Shown here piece after piece: positions 12,901 through 59,160 of a stretch of 64,000 bases of DNA. The translations under genes and the position numbers were made by a program. How positions within the stretch are numbered: the stretch's first letter is position 1; each line of letters begins with the position of its first letter. Origin of the DNA: Minisyncoccota bacterium (lineage in GTDB: Bacteria > Patescibacteriota > Minisyncoccia > Phycocordibacterales > UBA6065); NCBI GenBank assembly GCA_041661645.1, contig JBAZUA010000003.1, forward strand, positions 86,841 through 150,840, written 5' to 3'. Below the pieces are notes generated by a model. That model was not told where the DNA came from, made no database searches, and saw only the letters and a program-made list of their open reading frames with translations.

Positions 12901-13483
12901 CTATGCCGAATATCTCTTCGGTCGCGTTCGCGTTGACGCCAACGAGGAGAGTGTTCACCTCGAGCTGTGGCCAAGATGTGTCACAAAAAAGGAATCCCAG
13001 AAACTCATCGATGACATGTCCGAAATTCGCCGACTCGTCACCATTGGCCTCGAGCAAAGGGCCAAGGCGGGCATAAAGGTTCGCCAGCCGCTCGCGTCCC
13101 TTTCCATCAAGAAGGATCAGTTTTGCACGGACCTCCTCGACCTTGTGAAGGACGAGGTTAACGTAAAAGAGGTTCTTCTCGACACGTCTCTCGATCAGGA
13201 GGTTGTCCTCGATGTCGTGGTCACTGACGTCCTTAAGAAAGAGGGCGTCGCTCGCGATGTCATTCGCGCGGTGCAGGATCTCCGCAAGAAGGAGGGTCTG
13301 ACGGTGGGGGACAAGGTCTCGCTTCTTTTGGATTCCGATGAGAAGGGCAAGGAGCTGGTCCATGCTTTTCTCGGCGACATAAAGAGGGTGACCCTCGTTA
13401 CGGGGATCGAATATGCCACCCTTCCTCATGTCGAGCCCCTGGCCATCGAGGGCTACTCATTCAGGCTCGGCATCAGGAAGTAA
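9992..13483 (+). CDS. ileS: isoleucyl-tRNA synthetase, type 2 (eukaryote-like), carrying an inserted histidine-phosphatase domain
   Basis: HIGH = PPFATGLPHFGH; KMSKS = KMAKSKGN; EVFDCWFESGSMPFAQ matches the yeast ILS1 segment; 1163 aa. Confidence 0.9.
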   Translation: MAENTNNPQEPKIKSKLVELEAKTLAFWNERQIFKKTLARKGKDFVFYDGPPFATGLPHFGHLLPTTIKDIIPRYKTMQGYRVKRRWGWDCHGLPVENLIEKELGLKSKKDILDYGIGKFNAAAEASVLRYAKEWREIIPRIGRWVDMEEDYRTMDCGYTESVWWAFKTLHDKGLVYEGFKSMQICPRCETTLSNFEVNQGYKDITDISVFVRLELVGEENTHLLAWTTTPWTLPGNVALAVGSEIDYARVSHDGATYIIARDRVADVFAGKEHSLMSVEKGSALVGKEYKPLFSYFDNGGLKNRANGFKIYAAEFVTTADGTGIVHIAPAFGDDDLKLGQKHDLPFIQHVGMNGVFVPEVLDFRGLEVKPKGDHQSTDIEVIKWLAHKGFLFEKKKIIHSYPHCWRCDTPLLNYATSSWFVRVTDFKDKLVAANKKVSWTPSDIRDGRFGKWLEGARDWAISRSRFWGAPIPVWRGIKSGKIYPVGSIGDLKSLIRKSGNSYTLLRHGESESNVLGILNSEFPNKYHLTKKGREQISERAKALAAQGVDVIVASDFLRTKESARIVAEACGMDAKDIVYDVRLREYSVGPNLEGQAWESIEAAVRKHGLQAGMETPAELKRRVLDAMYDIDRKYFGKKILVISHGAPLNTILHGVQEVPGTDKVSHSERKSFQTPAEMHSLDFVALPHNERFDLDLHRPFIDKVECVAPDGEELVRVSEVFDCWFESGSMPFAQFHYTGSALPHFNPRGGLFRKALGFPADFIAEGVDQTRGWFYTLTVLGVALFGRSPFKNVIVNGIVLAEDGQKMAKSKGNFPPLLDTVDKYGADSLRYFFASSPAVKAEDTRFSEKGVDEVSKKLLQRLDNVLSFFELYGDAKTPMVPDSAHVLDSWIRARLAEVRDEVTAALDACQIDRAARPLMGFVDDLSTWYIRRSRDRFKSDNAVDQALALGTTKYVLREFAKISAPFIPFYAEYLFGRVRVDANEESVHLELWPRCVTKKESQKLIDDMSEIRRLVTIGLEQRAKAGIKVRQPLASLSIKKDQFCTDLLDLVKDEVNVKEVLLDTSLDQEVVLDVVVTDVLKKEGVARDVIRAVQDLRKKEGLTVGDKVSLLLDSDEKGKELVHAFLGDIKRVTLVTGIEYATLPHVEPLAIEGYSFRLGIRK
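11492..12070 (+). other. about 193-aa histidine-phosphatase (PGAM-like, branch 1) domain inserted in-frame in ileS between ...PIPVW..IRKSG and DLDLHRPFIDK..EVFDCWFESG
   Basis: LLRHGESESN (catalytic RHG) and ILVISHGAPL (second His); flanking residues align contiguously with yeast ILS1 (GVRNITDLHRDVIDK). Confidence 0.65.
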
Positions 13484-14076: not shown

Positions 14077-16014
14077 ATGTTCGAAAGTGAAAAAAAGAGC
14101 CCTCTCGACAGGCTCAAGAAAGGACTCTACTCAAGGAATGACCTGTTCGGCGATTCCCCGCGACACGACATACGTAGGATTGAGCATGAGGAAATTCCCG
14201 TGTCTTGGGAGCGAGAGGGTATTCCCGAGGAGGGCCCTGCGTCTCCGGCTCAGTCGCCGCGGCCCCTTGGAGTCCGGAAGTCATATAAGATACTTTTCTT
14301 CTCAGCCGCATCTTTTCTCCTCATCGCCCTGGCCGTCGGTGCCTTCACCCTCTTTGGGGGCAGGAACTTCGTATCTGTCGATAACATGGACATACTCATC
14401 GATGGCCCTGTCTCGATCGGAGGGGGGGAGCCTCTTTCCCTCAATGTGTCCGTCAACAACAAGAATAATGCCGAGGTCGAACTGGTTGACCTCATAGCGA
14501 CGTACCCTCAGGGAACCAAGGACCCCCAGGACCCAACAAAGGACCTGGCTCGTACCAGACTCTCTCTTGGGACCATGCCTGCGGGCACCCTCACGCAGCG
14601 GACGTTTCAGTCTCTTATGTTCGGGGAGGAGGGCTCAGACAGGGAGGTTGTCTTCACCGTCGAATACAGGACGGCCAATTCAAACGCCATCTTCTATAAG
14701 GAAAAGTCATATAAGCTCAAGCTCGCGTCCTCGCCCGTCATTGTCTCTGTCGATGCCCTTGATAGGGTTCTGAGCGGTCAGGGCACGCCCGTTACCATCA
14801 CCATCTCTTCTAACACGACCTCGGTGGTCAAGGACCTCTTGCTCGTTCTAGAGTATCCCTCGGGATATTCCGTGACCTCAGCAAACCCCGCGGCAACCTA
14901 TTCAAACAACATATGGCGCATTGGCGATTTGGCGCCGGGCGCAAAGAGAGTGATCTTCCTGAACGGCTCGATTCAGGGCGAAGACGGCGACACGAGAACC
15001 ATTCATGCGAACATTGGCATACGCAACGCGGCAAACGAACGCGAGATCGCCACGCGCGTTGTTTCCAAGGATCATTCGTTCCAGCTAGAGAAGCCTTTCC
15101 TCGGACTGGACCTTGCCCTAAACGGCGTCAGGACCGACAATGTTCCCCTTGAGGCGGGAAGGGTTGTAAGGGCCGATGTCATCTGGACGAACAACAGCGC
15201 CACGAGGATCACCGGCGCTCGCATAGAGGCAAAGCTCTCGGGCAGTGCCCTCGACAGGGGCTCGATCAACGTGACGGGCGGATATTATGATTCGAAAATA
15301 GACACGATCATCTGGGAGGCGGGAAGGGTTTCCGGTCTCGATGCCATCACTCCCGGCGATACGAATCGCGTTGGCTTCACTTTCGCCTCGAAACAGGTGG
15401 TTCCCGGGAAACCCCTCATTAACCCCTCCATGTCCGTCGTCGTCACTGCCCGCGGCAACCGCGTCGATGAGACGGGGGTTTCGCAGGAGGTATCGACCGG
15501 GGTCTCTCGCTCAATCAGGCTCGTATCGAACCTTTCCCTGTCTTCCCGAATCCTCCGGTCCCAGGGTCCTTTCAATAACACAGGCCCTATTCCTCCGAAG
15601 GTTGACCAGGAGACGACCTATACCATCGTATGGACAGTGACTAACACTTCGAATAGTATCAATGACGCACGGGTCACGGCGACGCTCCCGCCCTATGTGT
15701 CGTGGGCTGGCGCCGTAAGCCCTGAGGGTGCGGATGTGACCTATAATCCGACAGGGGGACAGATAACGTGGCTTGTGGGATCGGTTCCCCAGAACGCGGA
15801 TGTGGGCTCAGGCGCACGCCAGGTGGCCTTTCAGGTCATCCTGAGGCCTAGCCTGACCCAGGCGGGATCAAGCCCCGAGGTTATCGGACAGAGCCTGATA
15901 GCCGGGACGGACTCTTTCACGGGAACGAATCTCACCAACTCGGCCCCGGGCCTCTCTACGGTCACGACGACGGATCCTCTCTGGCAGGATGGGCAGGGGG
16001 TAGTCACGAAATAA
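14077..16014 (+). CDS. hypothetical membrane-anchored surface protein with repeated beta-rich extracellular domains
   Basis: Cytoplasmic N-terminus, one TM helix (ILFFSAASFLLIALAVGAFTLF), about 550-aa extracellular region rich in T/S/N/V with repeated domain-like segments. Confidence 0.45.
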   Translation: MFESEKKSPLDRLKKGLYSRNDLFGDSPRHDIRRIEHEEIPVSWEREGIPEEGPASPAQSPRPLGVRKSYKILFFSAASFLLIALAVGAFTLFGGRNFVSVDNMDILIDGPVSIGGGEPLSLNVSVNNKNNAEVELVDLIATYPQGTKDPQDPTKDLARTRLSLGTMPAGTLTQRTFQSLMFGEEGSDREVVFTVEYRTANSNAIFYKEKSYKLKLASSPVIVSVDALDRVLSGQGTPVTITISSNTTSVVKDLLLVLEYPSGYSVTSANPAATYSNNIWRIGDLAPGAKRVIFLNGSIQGEDGDTRTIHANIGIRNAANEREIATRVVSKDHSFQLEKPFLGLDLALNGVRTDNVPLEAGRVVRADVIWTNNSATRITGARIEAKLSGSALDRGSINVTGGYYDSKIDTIIWEAGRVSGLDAITPGDTNRVGFTFASKQVVPGKPLINPSMSVVVTARGNRVDETGVSQEVSTGVSRSIRLVSNLSLSSRILRSQGPFNNTGPIPPKVDQETTYTIVWTVTNTSNSINDARVTATLPPYVSWAGAVSPEGADVTYNPTGGQITWLVGSVPQNADVGSGARQVAFQVILRPSLTQAGSSPEVIGQSLIAGTDSFTGTNLTNSAPGLSTVTTTDPLWQDGQGVVTK

Positions 16015-30664: not shown

Positions 30665-31444
30665 ATGGAATCACCTCGAATGGACACGGATAAGACGATG
30701 GGAGGCATAATGGTCTTCAGCCAGAATAACCATTTCGCCTATATCTATAAAAAGACCGAGAAGCTCGTCACGGCGGTCTATATGATTACTAATTTCATCA
30801 AGGACAACGAGCCTCTCAAGTGGCGCATTCGAGAGAAGTCTCTCGAGCTCCTCTCCCTTAACGTGTCTCTGAACACGGTGTCCCTCTCGGACAGGAAGGA
30901 CCTTCTCAAGAAGTATCGGGCGCGCTCGGTCGAGATTGTGTCCCTTTCGAGCATCGCCAATCATTCCGGCCTTATCTCAGAAATGAACTGCGATATCCTT
31001 AAAAGGGAATTCAACAATCTTGCTTCAACGATAGAGAAAGACGAAAACAAGAAGGCAAGCGAGGAGACCGTCATTCTGAGTCCGAGCTTTTTTGATACTC
31101 CTATCGCGTCTCAGCAGATCCAGGAACAGACCCAATTGGCCCCAAGGGTAGTTCCCGTGCCGTCTGCCCAAATCGCCCCCATCGCCGCGGCCCCTCAGAA
31201 TGTCCTTTATAAGAGACAGGGGGTCTCACAGGCTACGCCAAGGAAGGCTGAGTCAAAGAACGATCGTCAGGAGTCTATACTTAAGGTCCTTTCAACTCGG
31301 AACAAGCTTTCCGTAAAGGACTTTACCGATACCATCAAAGGCGTGAGCGAGAAAACTATCCAGCGCGAGCTTCTGTCGATGGTTTCCTCGGGTGTCCTTA
31401 AGAAAGAGGGGGAGAGGCGCTGGAGTACCTACTCTATTGCCTAG
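30665..31444 (+). CDS. hypothetical protein with predicted C-terminal winged-helix (HTH) DNA-binding domain
   Basis: C-terminus RQESILKVLSTRNKLSVKDFTDTIKGVSEKTIQRELLSMVSSGVLKKEG resembles a DeoR/HTH_11-type wHTH; Gln/Pro-rich linker; start uncertain. Confidence 0.4.
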   Translation: MESPRMDTDKTMGGIMVFSQNNHFAYIYKKTEKLVTAVYMITNFIKDNEPLKWRIREKSLELLSLNVSLNTVSLSDRKDLLKKYRARSVEIVSLSSIANHSGLISEMNCDILKREFNNLASTIEKDENKKASEETVILSPSFFDTPIASQQIQEQTQLAPRVVPVPSAQIAPIAAAPQNVLYKRQGVSQATPRKAESKNDRQESILKVLSTRNKLSVKDFTDTIKGVSEKTIQRELLSMVSSGVLKKEGERRWSTYSIA

Positions 31445-31946
31445 GGCTCAAGCCGCTTGCCTTTAGGGTCATTTTGGTGTAGTATTGATGGGTGGATAGC
31501 AGTTATCCACATTCCATTATTTGAGGCCATTTGCACGCAAATGCCTCAAATTATATACTTATGGGAAGTCCCTGTGAGTATTCCTTGGCCCTTGAAAACC
31601 GAATAGCGATTTCAATCACCGATAATCTGAATTTGATTCCGGACGGAATGCCGTATTTCCGAATAACCACTTCATCCTATCAACTATCCCCGAGCCTTGT
31701 GTCGATCTCTCGGGCGAATCAAAAGTTCGCTCGAGAGAAAAATGAGTATCGGGGAATAGTGGAGCGATGGACGTGACGAGTAATATCGTCACGGCCCATG
31801 CGCACACATTCCTTCTCGTTGCCGTCGAAGCGTGAGAGGGAGTGACGGCCGGCTTTAGCTTAGTCACACAGAAGTCTGATATTGCGGACAATTAAAAGTT
31901 ATCCCGCGGTCCAGGCTTCTTCATTACTTAAAGTACACACTTATAT

Positions 31947-33890
31947 ATGTCAACCAATAAAATCGTTGCGGCAGCAGTGGGATTCTCACTCGCCTTCGCA
32001 GCTTTCGTAGGAGTTGGAGCAGCATCGGCAGGCGCACAGTCTATGACTTTGAGCCAGCTCGTTGACCTCTTCATCTCTCTCGGAATCATCTCTTCTGACA
32101 AGGCAGCAGCAGCAAAGGCAGCTGTTACCTCTTCCGCAACCGTCGCAGCTACTACCTTCAGCAAGGATCTCACCATCGGTTCTACCGGTGCTGATGTTTC
32201 CGCTCTCCAGGCAGCAGTCGGCGTAACTCCTGCTACTGGCTACTTCGGTGCAATCACCAAGGCAGCTGTTCAGGCTTACCAGACTTCAAAGGGAATCAGC
32301 GCTACCGGTTACGTAGGACCACTCACCCGAGCGGCTCTCAACGGATCAGTAACGACTACGACCACGACCACCACTACGACCCCTTCGACCACCACGACCA
32401 CGACCGTAGTTAACTCTGGCGTAGAAGGAATTCTTACCGCAGACAAGGCTTCTATCTCTAACTCGACCGTTTACGAGGGAGACACGATGCACACTGTTCT
32501 CGGTATCAAGCTCCAGGCCCGACTCTCTGACATCAACGTACAGCGCGTTCGATTGAACCTCGGTGCAGATACTTCTATCTACACGAAGGCATTCAAGACG
32601 ATGTACCTCGTTGACGACGCAGGAAAGGTCATCGCTCAGGCAGACCTCAACTCAAACACTGTTGTAAAGGATAGCTCTGTCTATCTCCTTACCTTCGGTG
32701 GATTCAACTACGCAGTTGCAAAGGATACTACCAAGTACCTCTGGGTTAAGGCTGATGCTTACTCGTCGTTCAAGACCACTGGAAGCACGAACTGTGCTTC
32801 TACGGCCTCGACTTGTACCATCGCTCTCGCCGACAGCAACGGAGTTCGAGGAGTTGACGGAGCAGGTATTGATCAGAATGCTGGTGGAACCACCGGTTTC
32901 GCTCAGACCATTACCCTCCAGACCAGCCTCATCGAAAACGCTACCCTTGACCTTTCTGTCAGCCCATCAAACGTCAAGACTGGCGATGTAGTTGCTTCGG
33001 AAGGTGCAAACAATGACGAGCTTGATCAGATGTCAGTTCTCGTGTTTGACGTTCGCGCAAACAAGGACTCACTCGACATCACTGACCTCACTGCAAGCAT
33101 CACTTCGACCGCAGCTCTCGCTACCGCAACGACCGCTTACCTCTACGATGGTTCAACCCTCGTCCAGACTGAGTCGATCAACGGTACGACCGTAACCTTC
33201 TCTGACATCAGCAACCTCTCTGTCGCAAAGGACACCACTAAGTCCCTTACGCTCAAGATTGATGTTCGAAGCGCCGTCGCTACTCCTGATTCGTTCGCCG
33301 CATCTATCGCTGCAAGCGGTATAACTGCTGAGAACTCATTGGGTACTACTGTACGCAACACTTCAGCTATCACTGGTGAGAATCAGATTGTCCGAAACGC
33401 AGGTCCAGTATTCACTCTTAAGAGCATCGTCAACGGTACTCCTTCGAAGACTACTGACCAGAACGGTCAGGCAACTTCTACCTTGCCTGTAACCTTCAAC
33501 CTCAACATTGCTGCCAAGGGATCAGACATCACCTTCGGTGCAAACGGTGGGGTTTGGGCTCTCGCAACGACCGGTCAGGCTGTCTTCTACGAGAACAACG
33601 TACTTACCGCAACCTCAAGCATCATGGCTTCTGGCTCTAACGTATCTGTTCTCTACACGGCACCTTCGACTGGTGTAACTAACGGAACCGACGTCTTCAC
33701 TCTTGCAAAGGGTGCAAACATTGACCTTCCTGTTATCGTAAGCATCACGGTTGGAAAGGCTTCTGGATCTGCAGCATACTCTGTTGGATTCAGCGGATTC
33801 AACTGGGGTCTCTCTGGAGCGGCTACTACGACTTCTACCTTCATGTCTGGTAAGACTGAGTGGAGAAGCACGAACGTAACCCTTCCTTAG
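31947..33890 (+). CDS. secreted cell-surface protein: signal peptide, peptidoglycan-binding domain, poly-Thr linker, large beta-rich domain (S-layer-like candidate)
   Basis: Signal peptide (AFAAFVGVGAASAGAQS); PG_binding_1-like repeat (GADVSALQAAVGV..TGYFGAITKAAVQAYQ...GYVGPLTRAAL); TTTTTTTTTPSTTTTTT linker; codon usage differs from neighbours (more GCA/GCT/TCT); own terminator. Confidence 0.65.
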   Translation: MSTNKIVAAAVGFSLAFAAFVGVGAASAGAQSMTLSQLVDLFISLGIISSDKAAAAKAAVTSSATVAATTFSKDLTIGSTGADVSALQAAVGVTPATGYFGAITKAAVQAYQTSKGISATGYVGPLTRAALNGSVTTTTTTTTTTPSTTTTTTVVNSGVEGILTADKASISNSTVYEGDTMHTVLGIKLQARLSDINVQRVRLNLGADTSIYTKAFKTMYLVDDAGKVIAQADLNSNTVVKDSSVYLLTFGGFNYAVAKDTTKYLWVKADAYSSFKTTGSTNCASTASTCTIALADSNGVRGVDGAGIDQNAGGTTGFAQTITLQTSLIENATLDLSVSPSNVKTGDVVASEGANNDELDQMSVLVFDVRANKDSLDITDLTASITSTAALATATTAYLYDGSTLVQTESINGTTVTFSDISNLSVAKDTTKSLTLKIDVRSAVATPDSFAASIAASGITAENSLGTTVRNTSAITGENQIVRNAGPVFTLKSIVNGTPSKTTDQNGQATSTLPVTFNLNIAAKGSDITFGANGGVWALATTGQAVFYENNVLTATSSIMASGSNVSVLYTAPSTGVTNGTDVFTLAKGANIDLPVIVSITVGKASGSAAYSVGFSGFNWGLSGAATTTSTFMSGKTEWRSTNVTLP

Positions 33891-33941
33891 TAGGAAAGTT
33901 ACTGGACATAGCGCTGAATCGAAAGGTTTAGCCTAGTTCAA

Positions 33942-33976
33942 GCAAAAGCCGCACGAGCAATCGTGCGGCTTTTGCG
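33942..33976 (+). terminator. rho-independent terminator after the surface-protein gene
   Basis: CAAAAGCCGCACGAgcaaTCGTGCGGCTTTTGCG. Confidence 0.8.
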
Positions 33977-34042
33977 TTGGGAGAAAAGGAGATTGTTCTA
34001 TATAATAGGGCTATGAAAAAGGCATCGAACGAGGGCGGGTTC

Positions 34043-35005
34043 ATGAAGAAGATAGTCATAGTGACCGTGGCGGCCTGCATTGCATTTGTATTCCTATTCA
34101 AGTTTCTCCAGGATTTTCAGGCGACATCGTTCATCAACCTTTCCTCGGGCACGAATTATACGAGCCGATATCAGTCCGCGACGAACCCTTTGCTCGACTT
34201 TGGCAATTCCTCATATAGCCCATATTCGGACGATTCGAACAGGAGCGTGCCAAACTCTGATGGCAAGTTCACGTCGCCATATGCGGCGCAGGTAAGGTTG
34301 TCTTCTGGTAGCGCGAGCCAGGCTAATCAGACCTATGAGGAATACGTGACGCTCACCAACAGCGGCGCGCCCATCAACATTACGGGCTGGGTCATTGCAA
34401 ACGGCAAGGGGTCGAGGCCGATAGAGAATACTCAGATAAGCTATGCATATCCGGTAGCCGATTCTGCGACCATAGGGCAGGGGACCGAGTTCGTCTCCCC
34501 GGACGGCAAGTTTCAGGTTGGACCGATAGTTCTCAAGAGGGGCGACACGGCAATTCTTCAGACGGGAAGGCCCTTCTCGCAGTTTCCCTTTGCCCTCTAC
34601 ACGAGCTTCCGCGAGAACATGTGCATGGGCTATCTCGACAAATATCCTCTCGCGCCGCAGCTCAGCCTGTCATGCCCGTTCCCGACCAGCGACCCTTTCA
34701 TTCGAACGGTGACAGATCAGTGCTATGACTATCTCAACTCGCTTGCCCGCTGCCAGAGCCCGCAGGATGCGGTAAAGGGCCCGGAGAAGGATAGATATGA
34801 TCTTCTGACCTCCCAGTGCAAGTCTTTTGTCACCTCTCGCCTGAATTATCAGAGCTGCGTGGAGAATAATAGGGACGCCCAGGGCTTCTCGACCAATCAG
34901 TGGCGCGTGTTCCTCAACAGGGATCGCGAGCTTTGGGCAAGCTCCCGCGAGACCATCACCCTTTACGACGCTCAGGGATATGTGGTGGATAGGTTAACTT
35001 ACTGA
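34043..35005 (+). CDS. lamin-tail-domain (LTD) protein with N-terminal membrane anchor and C-terminal Cys-rich domain
   Basis: LTD motif EEYVTLTNSGAPINITGWVI; N-terminal TM; 8 Cys in the C-terminal 100 aa; alternative start at 34013. Confidence 0.65.
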   Translation: MKKIVIVTVAACIAFVFLFKFLQDFQATSFINLSSGTNYTSRYQSATNPLLDFGNSSYSPYSDDSNRSVPNSDGKFTSPYAAQVRLSSGSASQANQTYEEYVTLTNSGAPINITGWVIANGKGSRPIENTQISYAYPVADSATIGQGTEFVSPDGKFQVGPIVLKRGDTAILQTGRPFSQFPFALYTSFRENMCMGYLDKYPLAPQLSLSCPFPTSDPFIRTVTDQCYDYLNSLARCQSPQDAVKGPEKDRYDLLTSQCKSFVTSRLNYQSCVENNRDAQGFSTNQWRVFLNRDRELWASSRETITLYDAQGYVVDRLTY

Positions 35006-35046
35006 TTTCTTTAGGATTTCTTCGGCGGTCCTTCATGGCCTAATTG

Positions 35047-35076
35047 ATATTGTTTCTTCATATGAAGAAACAATAT
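35047..35076 (+). terminator. 30-bp perfect palindrome ATATTGTTTCTTCATATGAAGAAACAATAT plus T-tract, spanning the start codon of the next gene
   Basis: Perfect dyad centred on CATATG; the ATG at 35062 lies in the 3' arm; followed by TTTTTATTT. Confidence 0.55.
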
Positions 35077-36357
35077 TTTTATTTCACGATGATTGGAAGG
35101 AGGGTCTTTTGTCTGTCTGTCGCCATTCTGTCTGCCTTTGTCGCGCCAGTTGTTGCCTGCGCCCAGGTTATCATCACGGAGATAATGTACGATGTGCCCG
35201 GCCCGGATACGGGAAGGGAATGGATCGAGGTGAAAAATTCCGGTTCAGAGCCCGTAGATCTTTCAACGTGGAAACTGTTCGAGGCCAATACAAATCACAA
35301 GATAGTCGCCGTCGGAGCGGCGATCGTCGCACGGGGTTCCTTTGCCGTGATCGCTGATGTTCCTGAAAAGTTTATTGCCGATAATCCCGGTTTCTCCGGT
35401 CAGGTGTTCGATAGCACGTTCTCGCTTTCGGGCGACGGGGAGACGTTGGTCGTTCGTGATTCGTCCGGGGCCGATAGCGATTCGGTCTCGTATGACCCAT
35501 CGATCGGAGCCAAGGGAGACGGCCTTTCGTTGCAAAGGACATCCGATGGGAGGTGGATTGCCGCCAATCCTACCCTGGCCGCGCTGACCATCGCCACCCA
35601 GTCTGAGACAGTGAGGGTTCCTTCCAGTGAAACCGAAATATCCGCATCCGAGGCGCCTCCCTTGGCCGTGTCCGCCCCACAGGATTCTCAGGCAAATTCA
35701 GCCTATGCGAGCCAAGCCTTGGCGAACACGTCGGCAGATCAGTCTGACCTCGAGGTGACGTCTGGTCGGACGAGGCTCGGTTTCGTGGATACCGCGCTTG
35801 AGTTTCGGGCCAAGGTTCGAAAGGGAGGAAGTCCCACATCGACCATCGAGCATATTTGGTCCATGGGGGATGGGTCAATTTACCACGGGACGATCATAGA
35901 TCATGCCTACAGATTCGGCGGCCTTTATTCGGTCATTTTGAACAGTTCGACAAAACATTCTCAGGCCGTATCAAAGGTGTCCGTAAGGATTCTCGAACCG
36001 AGAATCTCCATTGTCGCCGTAACTGATCAGTATGTCGAGATACGAAACGATGATTCATCCGAGCTCAACCTGGGTGGCTGGTCAATCCAAACCGAGGTGA
36101 ATAGGTTTATCGTGGGCGACGATACGATAATGGCCCCTGGCATATCCGTGAAGTTTGCCTTTGCCGCGATTCCTCGGTTCGCCCCGCCCAAGGAATTCAT
36201 TCGCATCCTCAGCCCCTTCGGTCGCATCTTTGCCGAGTGGCACCCTGGCGTCGTGGCGGGGATAGCCCCGGATGGGGTGCTCATCGAATTGCCAGAGGGG
36301 ATGACGAGGGAATCACTCGAGACACTGTTTCGTAATGTTGTAAACAGCCATGAGTAA
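35062..36357 (+). CDS. tandem lamin-tail-domain (LTD) secreted protein
   Basis: LTD1 IITEIMYDVPGPDTGREWIEVKNSGSEPVDLSTWKL; LTD2 YVEIRNDDSSELNLGGWSI; N-terminal signal/anchor; Ser/Ala-rich linker. Confidence 0.7.
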   Translation: MKKQYFYFTMIGRRVFCLSVAILSAFVAPVVACAQVIITEIMYDVPGPDTGREWIEVKNSGSEPVDLSTWKLFEANTNHKIVAVGAAIVARGSFAVIADVPEKFIADNPGFSGQVFDSTFSLSGDGETLVVRDSSGADSDSVSYDPSIGAKGDGLSLQRTSDGRWIAANPTLAALTIATQSETVRVPSSETEISASEAPPLAVSAPQDSQANSAYASQALANTSADQSDLEVTSGRTRLGFVDTALEFRAKVRKGGSPTSTIEHIWSMGDGSIYHGTIIDHAYRFGGLYSVILNSSTKHSQAVSKVSVRILEPRISIVAVTDQYVEIRNDDSSELNLGGWSIQTEVNRFIVGDDTIMAPGISVKFAFAAIPRFAPPKEFIRILSPFGRIFAEWHPGVVAGIAPDGVLIELPEGMTRESLETLFRNVVNSHE

Positions 36358-39295
36358 AAGTGCACGCACCATAGCCTTCACCATCGTCTTTGCTGTTGGC
36401 GCATTTGGCTTTTTAAATGATGTTTTTGCGGATACCATCGTTACGGGTCAGTTAAATTCTGACACGACATGGACGAAGGAGGGAAGTCCCTACATCGTAG
36501 GGACATATCGGGTCAATAAGGGCGTCACCCTCACCATTGAGCCCGGTGTCACCGTTGGCTTCGGCACCGGGATGCCCTCCCTTGATGTATATGGAAGTCT
36601 TATTGCGCATGGCACTTCCGCCGAGCCAATAACCATCGCCTATACCTATCAACAGGCCTATATTCTTCAAATCCAAGTCTTCGGGGGAGTCATGGATTTG
36701 TCGTATCTCACAATCTCGGGTTTTGCCAGCCTGTCTGGACTAAACGGGGCGCATATCAGTTTTGATCATGTGAAATCGATTGATTTTCAGATATTCGTGT
36801 CCGCCTCCTCTCTCGTGATGAATGATTCGGTGTGTTTAAACACCGGACATCCTGTGACCATCCGTGTGGCCGTGAACAAGGGCGTGATCCCTACTGTGCT
36901 TATTCGAAATTCGGTTATCTTGGGAAAGAGATATTATGCCCTTTCTGCTGACTCTGGAGCTGCGGTTGATGTGAGAAATAACTTTTGGGGTGACGTATCT
37001 GGTCCCTACCACTCTGTCTTTAACAAGACTGGAAAGGGGGACCCTATCTCTGGCAATGTTGATTTCTCCCCATGGCTTTCCAGGGACCCTTTCGCATGCT
37101 GTTCAAGCGTCCTTTTCCTTCCGGGCTTCGAGGGCAGTCGGCTCTATGTGTCAGATGATCCATCGAGCACCAGTACCTCGTCCGGCGATAACAGGATTTG
37201 GGAGCCAAACCGCGATAAGGACATTGAATCGCTTGGCCTTACCCCTTCTGGCGCGAGTGCGAATAGGGTGTACTCAAAGATTGGGGATATCATCGACGAG
37301 GCGTATGTTTCTCTCGCGGGACCCAACATATACAAGTCATTTATGGCTGATATGAATGATCTCGTCGCCACGGGTACCGTAAAGAGTTGGCTCCCGGCCG
37401 CATACGATTGGAGGCTTTCTCTGGATCAGTTGCTTAATATGGGGAACGCGTCATCGAGCGGTTTGATTTCGTATCTTGATTCAACATCTACTCCGTATCT
37501 GGTCCAGGAGTTCTATAAGCTCGCCCGCGAGTCAAAGACCGGCAGGGTGAGCATCGTGGCCCATTCAAACGGCGGCCTTCTTGCCAAGGCTTTGGTGTCG
37601 TATGTCGAGAGTCGCGGGGATGCGGATCTCGTGGACAAGATACTGTTCGTGGCCGTGCCCCAGGTGGGAACCCCTCATGCGATCGGGGCGTTGCTGCATG
37701 GCTTCAAGGAGGGGATATGGCCCTTTACCTCGCCGCAGGCAATGCGTCGACTTGGTCAGAATATGCCGGGCGCATACAATCTTTTGCCGTCGCTTCGATA
37801 CGCTGACTTCGTCTCTAGCCCCATCATCAGTTTTTCGTCGGCCACATCATCGCCATTGCTTGTAGATATGCATGACGCGTATGGCGATGGCATCAGACTT
37901 TTTTCATCCCTCGTAGGTTTCTTGAAGGGCAGCGAGGGCAGGCGGGCGCCCACCTACGCTGACCTGTCTGCGCCCGAGATCCTCAGCCCGTCGCTTCTCG
38001 ATAGCGCGTCCACTACGCATGCGGTTCTTGATGCCTGGATTCCATCACCGAGCTCTGAACTGTTTGAGATCGCGGGCAGGGGCCTCGACACTGTTTCGGG
38101 AATTGAATATTACGAGGGAAGGAAGGGCAGGAAGAAGGCGCTTCTCTATAGGCCGATTTTTTCCTCTGATGGTGATGGCACCGTCATGCTCTCGAGCGCC
38201 TGGGCAACACCCTCGACCGAGAATGTCCATAGATACTGGGTTGACCTCAAGCTCGCGAGCGCGGGACTTAATCGCAATCGGGACCATTCGAACATTCTTG
38301 AGGTCGACGATTTGAGGGACTTCATAAAGGAGATACTTTCCGAGGCTCCCCATGCCATACGTCATCGGGCGCAGGTTGCCGATGCCTCAGTCGTGCCCAA
38401 GAAGCCATTTCAGAAAACCACTCGCGTTTTGCTGCATTCTCCCGATGCTTCTCTGGGCGTTAATGACAGCCAGGGGAGGCATACCGGAAGGTCATCATCT
38501 GGATTCGTCGAGACGCAGATTCCCGGCAGCCAGTATCAGGAGCTTGGCGATGTCACATATGTGAGCATCCCTGATTCCCCGTCATCGGATGGTCCCGCTC
38601 CCGTCATCCAGATAACGTCAGGTTCCACAACCTCCTCGATGTCTGATTCGGCCTTTTCGGTCGATGTCGAGCGGGCCACGGATGACGATGTTGCCACCTC
38701 GTCTACCTTTGAGGACGTGGTGGTTCCGCCCGGCGGTACCCTGACCATTGTGCCTATTTCAGATGCGTCTTCATCGACGGTCCCCGTCCTCCAGATAGAC
38801 GATAACGGTGATGGTACGGTCGATAGGGAGGTGTTGCCGGGCGCGCCTATTCCCGAACCTGTGTCCGCGTCAGAACCCGAACCAGGGGTGGAACTAGAAC
38901 ATGTGCCCGAATTTGGCGCCCGTCATCTGTCATCGAGTGGCGGAAGGTCTTCGGCCCGATCATCTGTGCGCGTCACTTTGCCGACCCCGTCTCCCTCATC
39001 GACTGAGTCGTTTTCAATAGCCACGACACAGGCCGCCTCTGCGACTGAGACTTTACCCATGATCGTTAATCACGCGTCGCTCAAAGACGCATCATTGGAA
39101 ATTGCCGACAAGGAGGTTCCTCCCGGGGCAGGGCATCGGTCGACCAACCTGGCGGCGGCATATATCAGCGTGGCCACGACAGCGACCTCGGCCGCGGCTT
39201 CGGGCCCGAGGGCGAGCCTTTCCCTCATCTCGGCTTTTCTCGTCGCCCTTGCCATCCTCTGGCTCTTGTCTTGCAAAATATCGAAATCCAGGTAA
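36350..39295 (+). CDS. large secreted protein: N-terminal right-handed beta-helix-like domain, LCAT-like (PF02450-type) phospholipase/acyltransferase alpha/beta-hydrolase domain, Ser/Pro-rich stalk and C-terminal membrane anchor
   Basis: Signal peptide; beta-helix-like repeats (GVTLTIEPGVTVGFG); LCAT-family hallmarks AAYDWRLS and nucleophile elbow VAHSNGG; C-terminal hydrophobic helix plus KISKSR; start ATG overlaps the upstream stop (ATGAGTAA). Confidence 0.6.
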   Translation: MSKSARTIAFTIVFAVGAFGFLNDVFADTIVTGQLNSDTTWTKEGSPYIVGTYRVNKGVTLTIEPGVTVGFGTGMPSLDVYGSLIAHGTSAEPITIAYTYQQAYILQIQVFGGVMDLSYLTISGFASLSGLNGAHISFDHVKSIDFQIFVSASSLVMNDSVCLNTGHPVTIRVAVNKGVIPTVLIRNSVILGKRYYALSADSGAAVDVRNNFWGDVSGPYHSVFNKTGKGDPISGNVDFSPWLSRDPFACCSSVLFLPGFEGSRLYVSDDPSSTSTSSGDNRIWEPNRDKDIESLGLTPSGASANRVYSKIGDIIDEAYVSLAGPNIYKSFMADMNDLVATGTVKSWLPAAYDWRLSLDQLLNMGNASSSGLISYLDSTSTPYLVQEFYKLARESKTGRVSIVAHSNGGLLAKALVSYVESRGDADLVDKILFVAVPQVGTPHAIGALLHGFKEGIWPFTSPQAMRRLGQNMPGAYNLLPSLRYADFVSSPIISFSSATSSPLLVDMHDAYGDGIRLFSSLVGFLKGSEGRRAPTYADLSAPEILSPSLLDSASTTHAVLDAWIPSPSSELFEIAGRGLDTVSGIEYYEGRKGRKKALLYRPIFSSDGDGTVMLSSAWATPSTENVHRYWVDLKLASAGLNRNRDHSNILEVDDLRDFIKEILSEAPHAIRHRAQVADASVVPKKPFQKTTRVLLHSPDASLGVNDSQGRHTGRSSSGFVETQIPGSQYQELGDVTYVSIPDSPSSDGPAPVIQITSGSTTSSMSDSAFSVDVERATDDDVATSSTFEDVVVPPGGTLTIVPISDASSSTVPVLQIDDNGDGTVDREVLPGAPIPEPVSASEPEPGVELEHVPEFGARHLSSSGGRSSARSSVRVTLPTPSPSSTESFSIATTQAASATETLPMIVNHASLKDASLEIADKEVPPGAGHRSTNLAAAYISVATTATSAAASGPRASLSLISAFLVALAILWLLSCKISKSR

Positions 39296-40358: not shown

Positions 40359-40381
40359 ATCTGTCCCCAGGACACGTTTCG

Positions 40382-40412
40382 AAGGCGCCCCGCTTGGGGC
40401 GCTTTTGTTTTG
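40382..40412 (+). terminator. rho-independent terminator after rplL
   Basis: AAGGCGCCCCgcttGGGGCGCTTTTGTTTT. Confidence 0.8.
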
Positions 40413-41992: not shown

Positions 41993-42885
41993 ATCTCTAT
42001 TCCGATTATGTTAAACCCTCAATCAAAAGCGGACTAGATAAGACCAGTTTCTGGCCTTGTTTAAGTACCGCTCAGACCGAGCGGTTTTTAATTTTCGGGA
42101 GGTGCTGTTATTTGAAATACGAACCCCGTCCCACTAGTCTTCCGCCCTCAAAAGCGGATGGTCTTTTCAAGAGTGGAGACGACTACATTCGTACGTTAGA
42201 TCGTGCGGATGTAAAACCTGCATCTTTCTCCCAGGAAGAGAGGATGCAGTGCAACAGGTAAAAATTAAATTGTATGAGTGTTCGTTGTAAGCGAACACTC
42301 TCATTGAGAATGAGTTTAAGTGGTTTTTAAATTTCCTAATAGGAAATTTAAGAGCATATGGTGGATGCCTTGGCTTCTGAGAAGCGATGAAGGACGTTGC
42401 GTAGCGACGATATGTTCGGGGAGCTGCCGAGCGAGCTTTGATCCGAACGTTTCCGAATGAGGAAACTCCATGTCGAGTGATCGACATGACCTTGGCCTTT
42501 ATGGTCAAGGAGCATACCCTGGGAAGTAAAACATTTCAGTACCAGGAGGAAGAGAAAACAATGTCCGCGTACTGCGGACGATATTTCCTTAGTAGTGGCG
42601 AGCGAAAGGGAAAGAGCCCAAACCTAGTCTTAATCGTGCGGTATGTCGCAAGACGTGCAGCGCGATTAAGACTGGGGGTTGTAAGATGATGATGTCACTA
42701 TTTATAGTGGAAAGAGTTACAAAATGTTTTGTTAGCAGAATTGGCTGGAAAGCCAGACCCTAGTGAGTGATAGTCTCGTATGCGAAAATAAAACATCTCT
42801 TTTATTGTCATTCTTGAGTACCCCAGGACACGAAAAGCTTGGGGGAATCTACCGGAACTAACCGGTAAGGCTAAATATTCCAGAA

Positions 42886-42918
<33 letters not shown>

Positions 42919-43505
42919 CGAAAAGAACCCCGGAGAGGGGAGTGAAATAGACCTGAAACCATATGCTTACAAGGAGTCGGAGCGGTAATTTATTACCGTC
43001 ACGGCGTGCCTATTGAAGAATGAGCCAACGAGTTAATGCATGCTGCAAGGCTAAGGGCTTGAATGCCCGGAGCCGCAGGGAAACCGAGTGTGAATAGCGC
43101 GACTCAGTAGTATGTATTAGACCCGAAGCCGGGTGAGCTTGCCATGTGCAGGTTGAAGTTTGTCGAAAGACAGATGGAGGACCGAACGCTAGAGACGTGC
43201 AATACTCTGCGATGACATGTGGTATGGAGTGATAAGCTCATCGAACTCGGTAATAGCTGGTTCTCTCCGAAATATGTTTAGGCATAGCGTCGTATGTTCC
43301 CACGAGGGGTAGAGCACTGGAAGATTCTGACAGGTAGAAATACCGCAGAACCTATCAAACTCCGAATACTCGTGGTTAAAAGTACGGCAGTAAGACCGTG
43401 GGGGCTAAGCTCCACAGGTCAAAAGGGAAACAGCCCGCATCTCAATTTAAGGTCCCAAAATTCATGCTAAGTACAAGTGAGGTGGTGAATCTTCTCTGAC
43501 GGTGA

Positions 43506-43537
<32 letters not shown>

Positions 43538-44389
43538 GAAAGCGTAACAGCTCACTCACTTAGAGGGTTTGCGCCGCAGATGATCGGGGTTAAAGCATGA
43601 TACCGAAACTGAGGATTGCATCCATATTCGTATGGGTGCACTGGTAGGAGAGTATTCTACTCTGCGATGAAGGCAAAGGGGTGACCCATGCTGGAGCGTG
43701 TAGAAGTAAGAATGTTGGCACAAGTAACCACAATGCGGATGAGAAATCCGCACGCCGGAAGATTAAGGTTTCCTTCGCAATGGATTTCAGCGAAGGGTTA
43801 GTCGGGCCTAAGGGGATGGTGAAAACCGTACCTGATGGACACATGGTTAATATTCCATGACTGGCGTTTGGTGCGATGGGAGGACGGAGCACAGTATGTG
43901 TAGCCCCTTATTGGATTGGGGTTGTTGGTCTCAGGGCGATATGCGAGGAAAATCCCGCATTCTGCATTTATTTGCGAGCCTAAGGACAGACGGGAAGGCT
44001 GGGTTCGCCCAGCGGAACTACACAGAGCGAGCTTTCAAGAAAATTCTCTAAGCATAACCAAACGCTATCCGTACCGAAAACCGAAACAGGTGATCGGCTC
44101 GAGGAGAGCAAGGCGAACGAGTGAAGGTCCTTCAAGGAACTCGGCAAAAAATCAGCCGTAAGTTAGCGATAAGGCTTGCCCTCTCTTTATTGAGGGGGCC
44201 GCAGCGAAAGTATGCCTGGCGACTGTTTATCAAAAACACAGCTCCCTGCGAACTCGTAAGAGGATGTATAGGGGGTGACACTTGACCAATGCCAGAAGGT
44301 CAACCAGCGGCGTTGCCACGTATTTATACGTGGTGGTGACTGCTGTAAGCCCTGGTGAATGTCGGCGGTAACTATAACCGTCCTAAGGT

Positions 44390-44606
44390 TCTGCATCTTT
44401 CGCAAGAAGGGTGCAGAAGGACTGGGACGGTCATAGCAGTGTTAGATGAACAAGAACCTAATAGAAGTTACACAAATAGCTACCTGACATCGCAGTAATG
44501 CATTGTCAGTCCACACATGATCAACAAGAGACCAACGTCATGGATCCGAACTCGTCAATTCGTTGATGGGAGGATTAAGATAGAGTCCGACTTAGAGGAA
44601 TAGTTG
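44390..44606 (+). ncRNA. putative group I intron (217 nt) in 23S, between E. coli-equivalent U1931 and A1932 (CCUAAGGU | AGCGAAAUUCC)
   Basis: Exon sequence is contiguous with E. coli once 44390-44606 is removed; 5' exon ends in U, insert ends in G; internal AAGATAGAGTCCGAC resembles the group I J8/7-P7 3' strand. Confidence 0.5.
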
Positions 44607-45267
44607 AGCGCAATTCCTTGTCAGGTAAGTTCTGACGCGTTGAATAGTGTAACGTCTGGGCAACTGTCTCGAAGGACAGCTCGGTGAAAATACAATCCCG
44701 GTGAAGATGCCGGGTACCTGCAGTTAGACGAAAAGACCCTAGAAGCTTTACTATAGCTTGATATTGAGTATACGATTCTGATGCGTAGCATAGACGTGAG
44801 GATTTGAAGTGCGCTTTCGGGTAGCATGGATCCGCCAGTGAAATAGCGTTCTTCAGTGTTGTATATTCTAACCCCGAGGGCAAAAACCGCGGGAGACAGT
44901 ATCTGGTGGGTAGTTTTAGTGGGGCGCTATCCTCCTAAAAAGTAACGGAGGAGCCTATTAAGGTCAGTTAGCCGTGAATGGAAACCATGGCGATAGTGTA
45001 TGGGCATAAACTGGCTTAACTGTAAGACGTACATGTCGAGCAGATGCGAAAGCAGAGCTAAGTGAACCGACGGATCGCGTTAGATGCGGCCGGAGATTAT
45101 CGGACAAAAGCTACCCTAGGGATAACAGGCTCGTTCCGCCTAAGAGTTCATATCGACGGCGGAGTTCGGCACCTCGATGTCGGCTCATCTTATCCTGGGG
45201 CTGGAGAAGGTCCCAAGGGTTTGGCTGTTCGCCAATTAAAAAGGTACGTGAGCTGGGTTCAGACCGT

Positions 45268-45556
45268 TCAGAAGGTGATTGCGCATAGTCGCGCGATCAT
45301 GCACTGGACAGTCTGAATCCCTCGGACATCATGAGGAAAAAAGAGACAACAACCAATCACGGCGCCCGCAACGAGCAATCATTGCGGAGCCAGTTAACTA
45401 ATATCGGTGAAGCCCGACAGGCGCAAGCTTGGGGTAATACCGAGGGAAGCAGAGTCATATCTGCACCCGTAGAGACTACACGTTAACCTCCACATCGAAA
45501 TAATGAGATGTGGATGAAGATATAGTCCAATGCACAGAGTAATTTGTGAAAACATG
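45268..45556 (+). ncRNA. putative group I intron (289 nt) in 23S at the E. coli-equivalent L2593 site (GAACGU | CGUGAGACAG)
   Basis: Exons rejoin to GAGCTGGGTTCAGACCGT/CGTGAGACAGGTTGGTC; 5' exon ends in U, intron ends in G; contains GTAGAGACTACACG (P7 5'-like GACUA) and GAAGATATAGTCC, which matches the Tetrahymena J8/7-P7 element AAGAUAUAGUC. Confidence 0.6.
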
Positions 45557-45956
45557 CGTGAGACAGGTTGGTCTCCTATCTACTGCAGGCGTTGATTCTT
45601 GAGGAGTTTTGCTTCTAGTACGAGAGGACCGAAGTGAACGGACCGCTGGTCTGCCTGCTGTCACGCCCGTGGCAACGCAGGGTAGCTATGTCCGGAACGG
45701 ATAACCACTGAAAGCATCTAAGTGGGAAGCCGCCTCCAAGATAAGGAATCGTTTGAGGGCCCTAGGAGACTACTAGGTTGATAGGCTTTAGGTGTACACG
45801 CAGCAATGCGTTGAGCCGAGAAGTACTAATTACCCGATCTTATTAGGAAATTTATGAATCACTCATGGCGAGGGCCATGATTACTGATTCTTGATGATTT
45901 AATTATATTTGTTGCAAGTTCGTATTCCTGAAAACAGCACGATTGAATTCTGTGTT

Positions 45957-46062
45957 CTGGTGATTTAACGCGGTGGCACCACCTCTTCCCATCCCGAACA
46001 GAGAAGTTAAACGCCGTAGTGCCGATGATAGTCCTTATGGGCGAAAGTAGGTAGTCGCCAGT
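45957..46062 (+). rRNA. rrf: 5S ribosomal RNA
   Basis: GCGGTGGCACCACCTCTTCCCATCCCGAACAGAGAAGTTAAACGCCGTAGTGCCGATGATAGT...GTAGGTAGTCGCCAG; flanking processing stem GATTGAATTCTGTG / CACAGAATTCAATC. Confidence 0.85.
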
Positions 46063-46081
46063 ACACAGAATTCAATCAAAG

Positions 46082-57218: not shown

Positions 57219-57532
57219 GGTTGTTACCCCTCAAGTAGAGGGGGAAAAAGTTTTCGGTCTTTGAAATAATTATTGTTATTAAATATTTGAGAACGTGCAG
57301 TAGAAAACTGGTTATAAAGTTTCTACGCATTGTGCAAGTTAATTCAATTGAGAAGTTGGTTGTCGCAATTCGATGCAGATTCAGCATTCGATGCGACGTT
57401 AAACATATATAGGATTGTGGAGACCCCGGTAGCACGGGGAATCCCAGAACAAAGTAGTGAGCACTCATACTGTGATCTATTTTGTTCCGTTCGTCTTTCA
57501 GTGCACTCTTTCGGGAGTTTGCTGAAAGATTT

Positions 57533-59023
57533 AAAACAAGAGTTTGATCCTAGCTCAGGATGAACGCTGGCGGCGTGGATAAGGCATGCAAGTCAAGGGG
57601 GCCGCAAGGCAACCGGCGAACGAGGTAGTAATAAGTAGGTACGAACCTTCAAGTCAAGCATAGCTCGTCGAAAGACGGGGTAATTCTTGATAGTCCCTTC
57701 GGGGTAAAGATTTATCGCTTGAAGATCGGCCTGCTCGGTATCAGCTAGTTGGTGAGGTAAAAGCTCACCAAGGCAATGACGCCTAGGGGACCTGAGAGGG
57801 TGACCCCCACCGATGGAACTGAGACACGGTCCATACACCTACGGGTGGCCGCAGTCGAGAATCTTCCGCAATGGACGAAAGTCTGACGGAGCGACGCCGC
57901 GTGCAGGATGAAGTCCTTCGGGATGTAAACTGCTTTTATAGGGGAGGAAGTTTATTGACGTTACCCTAAGAATAAGAGGTTGCTAAACTCGTGCCAGCAG
58001 CAGCGGTAATACGAGTGCCTCAAGCGTTATCCGGAATCATTGGGCGTAAAGGGTTTGTAGGTGGTCATGTTAGTCTTTCGTTAAATTTCCCGGCTTAACC
58101 GGGAACATGCGGAGGAAACGGCATGACTTGAGGATGCAAGGGGTCTGCGGAACTCATAGTGTAGCGGTGAAATGCGTTGATATTATGGGGAACACCAAAA
58201 GCGAAGGCAGCAGACTGGGGCACTCCTGACACTGAAAAACGAAAGCGTGGGTAGCGAATGGGATTAGATACCCCAGTAGTCCACGCCCTAAACGATCTTC
58301 TCTAGCTATTTGGAGTATCGACCCTCTGAGTGGCGTAGCTAACGCGTTAAGAGAAGCGCCTGGGTAGTACGACCGCAAGGTTAAAACTCAAAGGAATAGA
58401 CGGGGACTTGCACAAGCGGAGGATCATGTGGTTTAATTCGATGGTAAACGAAGAACCTTACCAGGGTTGGAAATCTAGTTGAAGCCGAGCAGAAACGTTC
58501 GGCGCCGCAAGGCAATTAGACAGGTGCTGCATGGTCGTCGTCAGTTCGTGATTTGAATTGTTCCCTTCAGTGGGGTAACGAACGCAACCCTCATTGCCTG
58601 TTACAAGTGTCAGGCGAGACTGCCCAGCTTTTTGGTCACAATCGAAAGATTGCGCACAAGAAGCTGGGAGGAAGGTGAGGATGACGCCAGATCAGCATGG
58701 CCCTTTGATACCCTGGGCTACACACGTGATACAATGGCACTTACAACGCGAAGCGACGGGGAAACCCTGAGCAAATCGTTTAAAGAGTGCCCTAGTTCGG
58801 ATAGGAGTCTGCAACTCGACTCCTTGAAGCTGGATTCGCTAGTAATCTCGGGTCAGCTATACCGAGGTGAATACGTTCTCAAGTCTTGTACTCACCGCCC
58901 GTCAACTCAAGGGAGTTGGGAGTGCCCGAAGTCCGCGCTTGTCGCGGCCTAAGGCAAGCTCAATGACAGGGAGTAAGTCGTAACAAGGCACGGGTAGCGG
59001 AAGCTGCTCGTGGATTATTTCAA
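57533..59023 (+). rRNA. rrs: 16S ribosomal RNA (about 1.49 kb, no intron), 3' tail lacking the CCUCC anti-Shine-Dalgarno
   Basis: 5' AGAGTTTGATCCTAGCTCAGGATGAACGCTGGCGGCG; GTGCCAGCAGCAGCGGTAATAC (515 site variant); 3' GTCGTAACAAGGCACGGGTAGCGGAAGCTGCTCGTGGATTATTTCA. Confidence 0.9.
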
Positions 59024-59160
59024 GTGAAAACCGCTTTCCACTCTGTGGAGAGCTTACGGAGTCGATCATATTTATATGGGTTTTTCAGATACCTACAACT
59101 GAATGGACGTCAGGGAAGAACTGGCAAACAGAACGGAGCAAAGTAGAGGATAGTATGAAG

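Follow-up and report, generated by a model that had tools for sequence, protein, structure and literature searches.

The DNA analysed here, hereafter the window, is a 64,000-nucleotide stretch from a Minisyncoccota bacterium (GenBank assembly GCA_041661645.1, contig JBAZUA010000003.1, positions 86,841 to 150,840). It contains an uninterrupted open reading frame (ORF) for a 981-amino acid (aa) protein, present in identical sequence at NCBI as 'hypothetical protein WC763_03290 [Candidatus Paceibacterota bacterium]'. The protein joins a right-handed parallel beta-helix, an alpha/beta-hydrolase domain of the family of lecithin:cholesterol acyltransferase (LCAT) and lysosomal phospholipase A2 (LPLA2), a beta-sandwich, a low-complexity stalk and a predicted C-terminal membrane anchor. 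The features of the gene, called LCAT-like in what follows, are listed in window coordinates.

36350–39295 (+): LCAT-like gene, ATG start, 981 aa
36350–36430 (+): predicted signal peptide, aa 1–27, a hydrophobic N-terminal segment
36431–37084 (+): right-handed parallel beta-helix domain, aa 28–245, about 7–8 rungs
37097–38344 (+): LCAT/LPLA2-like alpha/beta-hydrolase domain, aa 250–665, probably with counterparts of the membrane-binding domain and the cap domain
37115–37129 (+): motif F256-L-P258-G259-F, which follows the first strand of the core and is a predicted oxyanion-hole loop
37403–37414 (+): Y352-D353-W354-R355, signature of the LCAT family
37556–37576 (+): nucleophile elbow V-A-H-S406-N-G-G, flanked by strand 400–405 and helix 408–421
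38162–38185 (+): catalytic acid loop S-S-D-G-D609-G-T-V
38279–38302 (+): catalytic histidine loop R-D-H646-S-N-I-L-E, before the last helix
38402–38839 (+): beta-sandwich domain, aa 685–830, 10–11 strands
38852–39211 (+): low-complexity Ser/Ala/Pro/Thr-rich stalk, aa 835–954
39212–39295 (+): C-terminal transmembrane helix (aa 955–976, by hydropathy and as a helix in the model), tail CKISKSR and stop codon

An AlphaFold2 model built on a 60-sequence alignment is confident, with a mean predicted local distance difference test score (pLDDT) of 81.9 and a predicted template modelling score (pTM) of 0.73. It partitions the chain into an all-beta region (28–245), an alpha/beta region (250–665), the beta-sandwich (685–830), a disordered linker (843–954) and a helix (955–976). 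A first-pass annotation, made by reading the sequence without database searches, had proposed an N-terminal beta-helix, a lipase core, and a stalk ending in a C-terminal helix. All three structural proposals agree with the translation and the model; the beta-sandwich, a conserved domain, had been overlooked.

The hydrolase domain and its active site

The Pfam LCAT model (PF02450) matches aa 327–625 over profile positions 65–370 of 392 (E = 1.7e-11); the score is 44.5 bits, where the gathering cutoff is 21. Its threshold is also passed by the seven homologues tested and by 119 of 120 precomputed hits. Below threshold, the query also matches DUF7379, DUF676 and PGAP1, which are likewise families of lipid esterases. 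The query has more than 1,260 homologues, and this number, the Pfam E value and the confident model together place the features far beyond chance.

Searches of PDB by sequence alone were null or marginal (no match with single-sequence phmmer; matches at E = 0.066 with a profile), and folds were therefore compared. Foldseek against PDB ranked LPLA2 (4x90/4x92) first, with E of about 1.5e-10 and a TM-score normalised to the target of 0.69–0.72, followed by human LCAT (E from 5e-10 to 5e-8), Tle4 (4r1d, 4.2e-8) and the Bacillus lipase BlEst2. Further structural relatives are bacterial lipases and palmitoyl-protein thioesterases. The best alignments cover 333 of the 376 LPLA2 residues. Besides the hydrolase core, proteins of the LCAT/LPLA2 family have an accessory membrane-binding domain and a cap domain with a lid (PMC6277198). 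The LCAT kinship first suggested by motifs is thus upheld by structure, LPLA2 (PLA2G15) being the best match and LCAT the next, and no assignment to an unrelated family lacking a catalytic triad emerged.

Conservation was scored in 118 homologues of 32–55% identity. Invariant are F256, P258 and G259; Y352-D-W-R355; H405-S406-x-G408-G409; G608-D609; and H646; E651 is at least 90% conserved. The triad S406, D609 and H646 is thereby kept in every homologue scored, and the invariance of triad, YDWR and FLPG at such divergence indicates strong purifying selection on the active site. The motif AAYDWRLSLDQ lies at aa 350–360 as annotated, and its YDWR aligns with APYDWRR of LPLA2. The elbow VAHSNGG is likewise present (aa 403–409, with Ser406) and has the strand-turn-helix form in the model, but it reads AxSxG (A-H-S-N-G), as in LPLA2, and not the strict GxSxG that had been claimed.

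The profile-to-PDB alignments pair S406 with the serine of VAHSMG and D609 with the aspartate of GDGDGTV (Asp327) in LPLA2, and the F256-L-P258-G259-F loop with VIFIPG of Tle4. In LPLA2 and LCAT the equivalent oxyanion loop reads LVPG[D/C]. The residue that follows the PG of this loop is hydrophobic in the query (F260), where LPLA2 and LCAT have the atypical Asp13 and Cys31, respectively (PMC6027918). The catalytic triad of LPLA2 is Ser165/Asp327/His359 (PMC6027918); H646 is probably the equivalent of His359, being invariant and standing at the canonical position, in the loop that joins the last strand of the model to its last helix.

Having passed the curated Pfam test, and sharing fold, motifs and triad, the query is filed as a member of the LCAT family. 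It nevertheless stands well apart from LPLA2 and LCAT, with only 16–18% identity to them. Those enzymes are eukaryotic, soluble and about 400 aa long, whereas the query is bacterial and fused to a beta-helix, beta-sandwich, stalk and membrane anchor.

Flanking modules and distribution of the family

The N-terminal segment reads MSKSARTIAFTIVFAVGAFGFLNDVFA, followed by DT (cleavage between VFA and DT), and predicts Sec export and cleavage by signal peptidase I at this site. Inspection of the query's signal peptide found no lipobox Cys. An equivalent hydrophobic N-terminal segment is seen in 94 of 120 homologues.

The stacked three-strand rungs at aa 28–245 form a right-handed parallel beta-helix, the pectate-lyase-like fold. 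The annotation had read it from repeats of a rung motif, GVTLTIEPGVTVGFG, which is present at aa 58–72 but occurs only once, the other rungs not being sequence repeats of it. Conservation is confined to the two ends of the domain (DTxWTxxxSPYxV and NNxWGDxSGPxH). The query matched no Pfam beta-helix family, PF13229 included, at E <= 0.1, whereas 60 of 120 homologues, those with longer helices, match PF13229 and often also NosD; the query's domain is therefore taken to be a short and divergent beta-helix. Its closest structural likeness is to autotransporter adhesin passengers (pertactin, Vag8 and Hap) and tailspikes, and it also resembles polysaccharide lyases and epimerases. The central rungs hold no conserved charged or catalytic-type residue, so the domain would serve as a binding or spacer arm and not as a second active site.

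Autotransporters may also carry enzymes as passengers, as in lipase autotransporters such as McaP. The design is similar, but membership is ruled out: the query has no C-terminal beta-barrel translocator and is anchored by a single helix. Autotransporter lipases carry a GDSL or patatin enzyme where the query has an LCAT-like one, and the domain order differs, with the query's beta-helix distal and its enzyme proximal.

The beta-sandwich, with pLDDT mostly at 70–95, has weak matches to PapD_C (Pfam, E = 0.026) and to Ig-like Fabs (Foldseek). Most tblastn matches in other genomes reach aa 825–830, and the domain therefore belongs to the conserved core. Its conserved residues are H696, S697, D706, G709, G733, D817 and G822. 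It is closed by a conserved D-x-N-G-D-G-x-x-D loop (aa 817–825) that resembles a Ca2+-binding motif and may bind Ca2+.

The stalk at aa 835–954, annotated as Ser/Pro/Thr-rich, is indeed of low complexity (S 17%, A 16%, P 10%, T 9%). It is poorly conserved and predicted to be disordered, with pLDDT <50 across 843–954. Residues 955–975 are the sole strongly hydrophobic stretch of the C-terminus and are followed by KISKSR; this helix is predicted to be a tail anchor with its basic end in the cytoplasm.

The C-terminal helix and KISKSR end of the query are as annotated but belong to one lineage and not to the family as a whole: the tail LALAILWFLSCKISKS[RGKE] is nearly identical in the closest relatives only (P0002–P0009 and P0025). 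Within that lineage it is kept among proteins otherwise 44–55% identical, and the Cys at the predicted membrane-cytoplasm boundary is invariant. This is more conservation than a simple anchor needs, and it could reflect a lipidation site or an interaction site.

An alternative C-terminal module is found in 38 of 230 family members. It consists of Q[TS]A[SAT][VA][YFHL], fixed at 33–41 residues from the end, and a hydrophobic or amphipathic helix; elsewhere in the same proteins the motif occurs once in 230,717 residues. Its carriers fall within P0011–P0216 and loci L005–L080 (e.g. L005, L030 and L080), and no NCBIfam model matched it. Syntenic orthologues of the query bear this version, and the query's anchor therefore looks derived from it. 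Other C-termini in the family are an OmpL47-type beta-barrel domain, a PxKF domain or an MBG_2 domain.

In six-frame scans of the window and about 0.9 Mb of related loci (84 loci, a biased sampling), both tail modules were restricted to genes of the LCAT-like family. The query has no LPXTG or PEP motif before its transmembrane helix, and it matched no NCBIfam sorting-signal model. On these grounds the tail is read, with low confidence, as a possible family-specific membrane anchor. A general sorting signal of the sortase or exosortase type was rejected, there being no signature motif and the modules being confined to the family in the sampled loci. A 45-aa profile of the tail, an underpowered query, returned nothing at E <= 10 from 5.8 billion proteins, family members included.

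A search with the hydrolase domain among cluster representatives (50% identity) gave 1,504 matches at E <= 1e-30, 290 more up to 1e-10, and 2,645 in all at E <= 1e-3. The small addition of 290 between the first two thresholds shows the family to be discrete. Among the best 150 representatives, nearly all have the domain starting 150–650 residues into a protein of 800–1,400 aa. Scanning one genome per GTDB species, confirmed relatives were found in at least 471 species-representative genomes. Labels of the relatives' genomes include Paceibacterota, Parcubacteria, Moranbacteria, Kaiserbacteria, Giovannonibacteria, Taylorbacteria, Lloydbacteria, Nomurabacteria and others, essentially all Patescibacteria; 'Saccharibacteria' and 'Bdellovibrionales' labels come from automatically named bins and are untrustworthy. 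The family has paralogues, since at least one metagenome-assembled genome has two copies, L020 and L023 (contigs CAYHIZ010000013.1 and CAYHIZ010000012.1).

The architecture of beta-helix, LCAT-like hydrolase, beta-sandwich and variable anchor is therefore abundant and not rare. The first-pass annotation had called it undescribed, and no description of the family was found in the literature searched (results for Patescibacteria with LCAT were unrelated gut-microbiome papers); general statements that genomes of the Candidate Phyla Radiation (CPR) encode 'phospholipases' are already published. In the databases, however, the proteins are plentiful under generic automatic names: 'right-handed parallel beta-helix repeat-containing protein', 'alpha/beta hydrolase', 'pimeloyl-ACP methyl ester carboxylesterase' and 'hypothetical protein'. 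None of these names gives the LCAT/LPLA2 kinship or a function. NCBIfam has no model for the query, and nine relatives matched only unrelated C-terminal domains in it. The novelty lies in this combination of domains and in its restriction to Patescibacteria.

Proposed function and alternatives

We propose that the protein, as a member of the LCAT/LPLA2 family, hydrolyses or transacylates lipid acyl esters at the cell surface, tethered to the membrane and acting on foreign membranes, plausibly for lipid harvest, and give this a probability of about 0.6. After Sec export the signal peptide would be cleaved, and the C-terminal helix would keep the protein in the membrane of its own cell with the basic KISKSR tail inside. 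The disordered stalk of about 120 residues and the beta-sandwich would hold the catalytic domain and the distal beta-helix off that cell, and the beta-helix would touch a foreign surface, for which a host bacterium's envelope is the most plausible candidate. With His646 and Asp609 activating it, Ser406 would attack an acyl ester of a glycerophospholipid to give an acyl-enzyme and a lysolipid, as LPLA2 and LCAT do (PMC6027918). The acceptor of the acyl group would then be either water, giving phospholipase A activity, or a lipid alcohol, giving transacylation. The outcome would be a breached membrane of the partner cell, lipids harvested from it, or both.

Paceibacterota are ultrasmall, host-associated and probably host-dependent. 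CPR bacteria (Patescibacteria) are reported to make neither fatty acids nor phospholipids; their membranes nonetheless consist of ordinary acyl lipids, with lysolipids abundant (PMC7242380), and their lipid acquisition machinery has not been identified (PMC11665869). For these reasons lipid harvest or membrane breach is the most economical reading, and phospholipase A action could itself generate the lysolipid-rich membranes. The next structural relatives after LPLA2 and LCAT, namely Tle4, bacterial lipases and palmitoyl-protein thioesterases, are also lipid esterases, and this favours the proposal. The predicted topology (signal peptide, stalk, helix with a basic tail), the secretion of the three upstream proteins, the adhesin-like beta-helix and the confinement of the family to genomes labelled Patescibacteria count in its favour too.

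Several points weigh against the proposal. At 16–18% identity to LPLA2 and LCAT, and with marginal sequence matches in PDB, substrate specificity is not confidently transferable. The membrane-binding domain of LCAT and LPLA2 has a disulfide, for which the query's family, with C250 as its sole conserved Cys, has no conserved counterpart. The function of every family member is inferred from homology, and the same holds for substrate, target cell and physiological role. A phospholipase tethered to its own membrane would face a problem of self-damage, and no immunity-like neighbour is present. The missing lipid synthesis is reported for the phylum and is not readable for this genome from 64 kb. 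Beta-helices, finally, are typically carbohydrate-active or carbohydrate-binding, which could indicate an acylated polysaccharide as the substrate.

A bolder form of the proposal makes the family the lipid-acquisition enzyme of Patescibacteria: on contact with a host bacterium, this surface-borne transacylase or phospholipase A would take acyl chains or lysolipids out of the host's membrane, and LCAT-like transacylation could hand the host's acyl chains straight to lysolipid acceptors of the symbiont. This we regard as speculative and unlikely. If it were true, it would explain how a membrane is built without fatty-acid synthesis and why CPR membranes are rich in lysolipids, in a group that makes up a large share of bacterial diversity.

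The family is large, conserved, confined to the phylum and predicted to be surface-exposed, and so offers a concrete, clonable candidate for the missing lipid step, whose ectodomain could be expressed and assayed without culturing the organism. It also extends a family known chiefly from eukaryotic lipid metabolism to the bacterial cell surface, in a new domain architecture.

The best surviving alternative keeps the same chemistry and changes its purpose: a contact-dependent antibacterial or lytic toxin, a surface analogue of the Tle effectors of type VI secretion systems (T6SS), would permeabilise host or prey for cytoplasmic nutrients and not for lipid supply. The absence of an immunity gene speaks against it, and we think it improbable. 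Tle4 itself is an antibacterial phospholipase injected by T6SS and accompanied by an immunity protein (PDB entry 4r1d is the Tle4-Tli4 complex), whereas the query is predicted to be Sec-exported and tethered, is without an immunity-like neighbour, and matches LPLA2 better than Tle4. Membership among the Tle effectors is ruled out by the signal peptide and anchor and by the surroundings of the gene, where there is neither T6SS linkage (vgrG/hcp) nor an adjacent Tli immunity gene; the neighbours are secreted peptidoglycan-binding and LTD proteins and ribosomal protein genes.

Somewhat less likely again is an esterase with a target other than membrane phospholipid, be it the envelope of its own cell, an acylated glycan or a polyester (for example an O-acylated glycan, a lipoteichoic-acid-like polymer, cutin or polyhydroxyalkanoate). 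The beta-helix would bind a polysaccharide of the cell's own wall, an exopolymer or a plant polymer, and acyl or acetyl groups would be removed or transferred by the hydrolase. The likeness of the beta-helix to polysaccharide lyases and epimerases fits such a role, as do weak Foldseek matches to the polyhydroxybutyrate depolymerase PhaZ7 (E about 0.01–0.05), the clustering of the gene with those for peptidoglycan-binding and LTD proteins, and nearby FtsK and FtsW/RodA genes. Against it, the best structural matches extend over the lipid-specific accessory domains of LPLA2 (the 333 of 376 residues given above), the best Pfam family is LCAT with DUF676 and PGAP1, also families of lipid esterases, next, and the rungs lack conserved catalytic-type residues.

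A non-catalytic adhesin or structural surface protein using the hydrolase fold as a scaffold, as the layout of signal peptide, beta-helix, stalk and anchor and the best beta-helix matches (pertactin, Vag8 and Hap) might suggest, is very improbable and was rejected, because the triad, oxyanion loop and YDWR are invariant in 118 divergent homologues while beta-helix and stalk show little conservation, as one would expect if the enzyme is active.

Gene neighbourhood and other features of the window

The LCAT-like gene is preceded by a co-oriented cluster, and cluster and gene together adjoin rplJ-rplL, directly upstream of it. The upstream members, with domains from Pfam, are as follows.

First gene of the cluster, which spans 30665–36357 (+): 259-aa protein, sub-threshold match to a DeoR-like helix-turn-helix
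31947–33890 (+): secreted PG_binding_1 protein, 647 aa, with a poly-Thr linker
33977–35005 (+): secreted LTD protein, 342 aa
35044–36357 (+): secreted LTD+PKD protein, 437 aa, its end sharing 8 nt with the start of the LCAT-like gene

The PG_binding_1, LTD and LTD+PKD proteins each show a hydrophobic signal at the N-terminus; unlike these three, the 259-aa protein has no N-terminal signal-like segment. LTD domains are predicted to bind DNA or polysaccharide (10.1101/2025.01.14.632903). The FtsK and FtsW/RodA genes also lie in this neighbourhood.

The cluster order is retained in relatives of 35–54% identity, always beside rplJ-rplL, and tblastn found the three-gene cluster at 8 of the 84 sampled loci. 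P0014 and most other family loci have unrelated neighbourhoods.

Promoter and terminator scans around the cluster did no better than on shuffled controls. The only convincing terminator is a hairpin of intrinsic type at 40380–40407 (+), directly after rplL, with 12 pairs, eight of them G-C, followed by a T-run. There is no terminator-like site between the LCAT-like gene and rplJ, and read-through into rplJ-rplL is therefore possible.

Elsewhere in the window, rRNA features lie at 42334–45850 (+), 45956–46063 (+) and 57532–59025 (+). The 23S and 5S genes form a pair, and the 16S gene follows about 11.5 kb further downstream, which makes the rRNA genes unlinked and their order non-canonical. The 23S match (42334–45850) spans 3,517 nt against a model of 2,925 nt; the roughly 590 nt of extra sequence, in one or more insertions, may represent an rRNA intron or insertion of the CPR type.

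At 9992–13483 (+) lies a gene for a 1,163-aa class I aminoacyl-tRNA synthetase whose catalytic domain, tRNA-synt_1, is split by a histidine-phosphatase domain (His_Phos_1, PF00300, E = 3.7e-26, aa 504–660), an unusual insertion roughly at the position expected for an editing domain. Between two aminoacyl-tRNA synthetase genes, an ORF of 645 aa at 14077–16014 (+) matches DUF11 repeats and would encode a further predicted surface protein.

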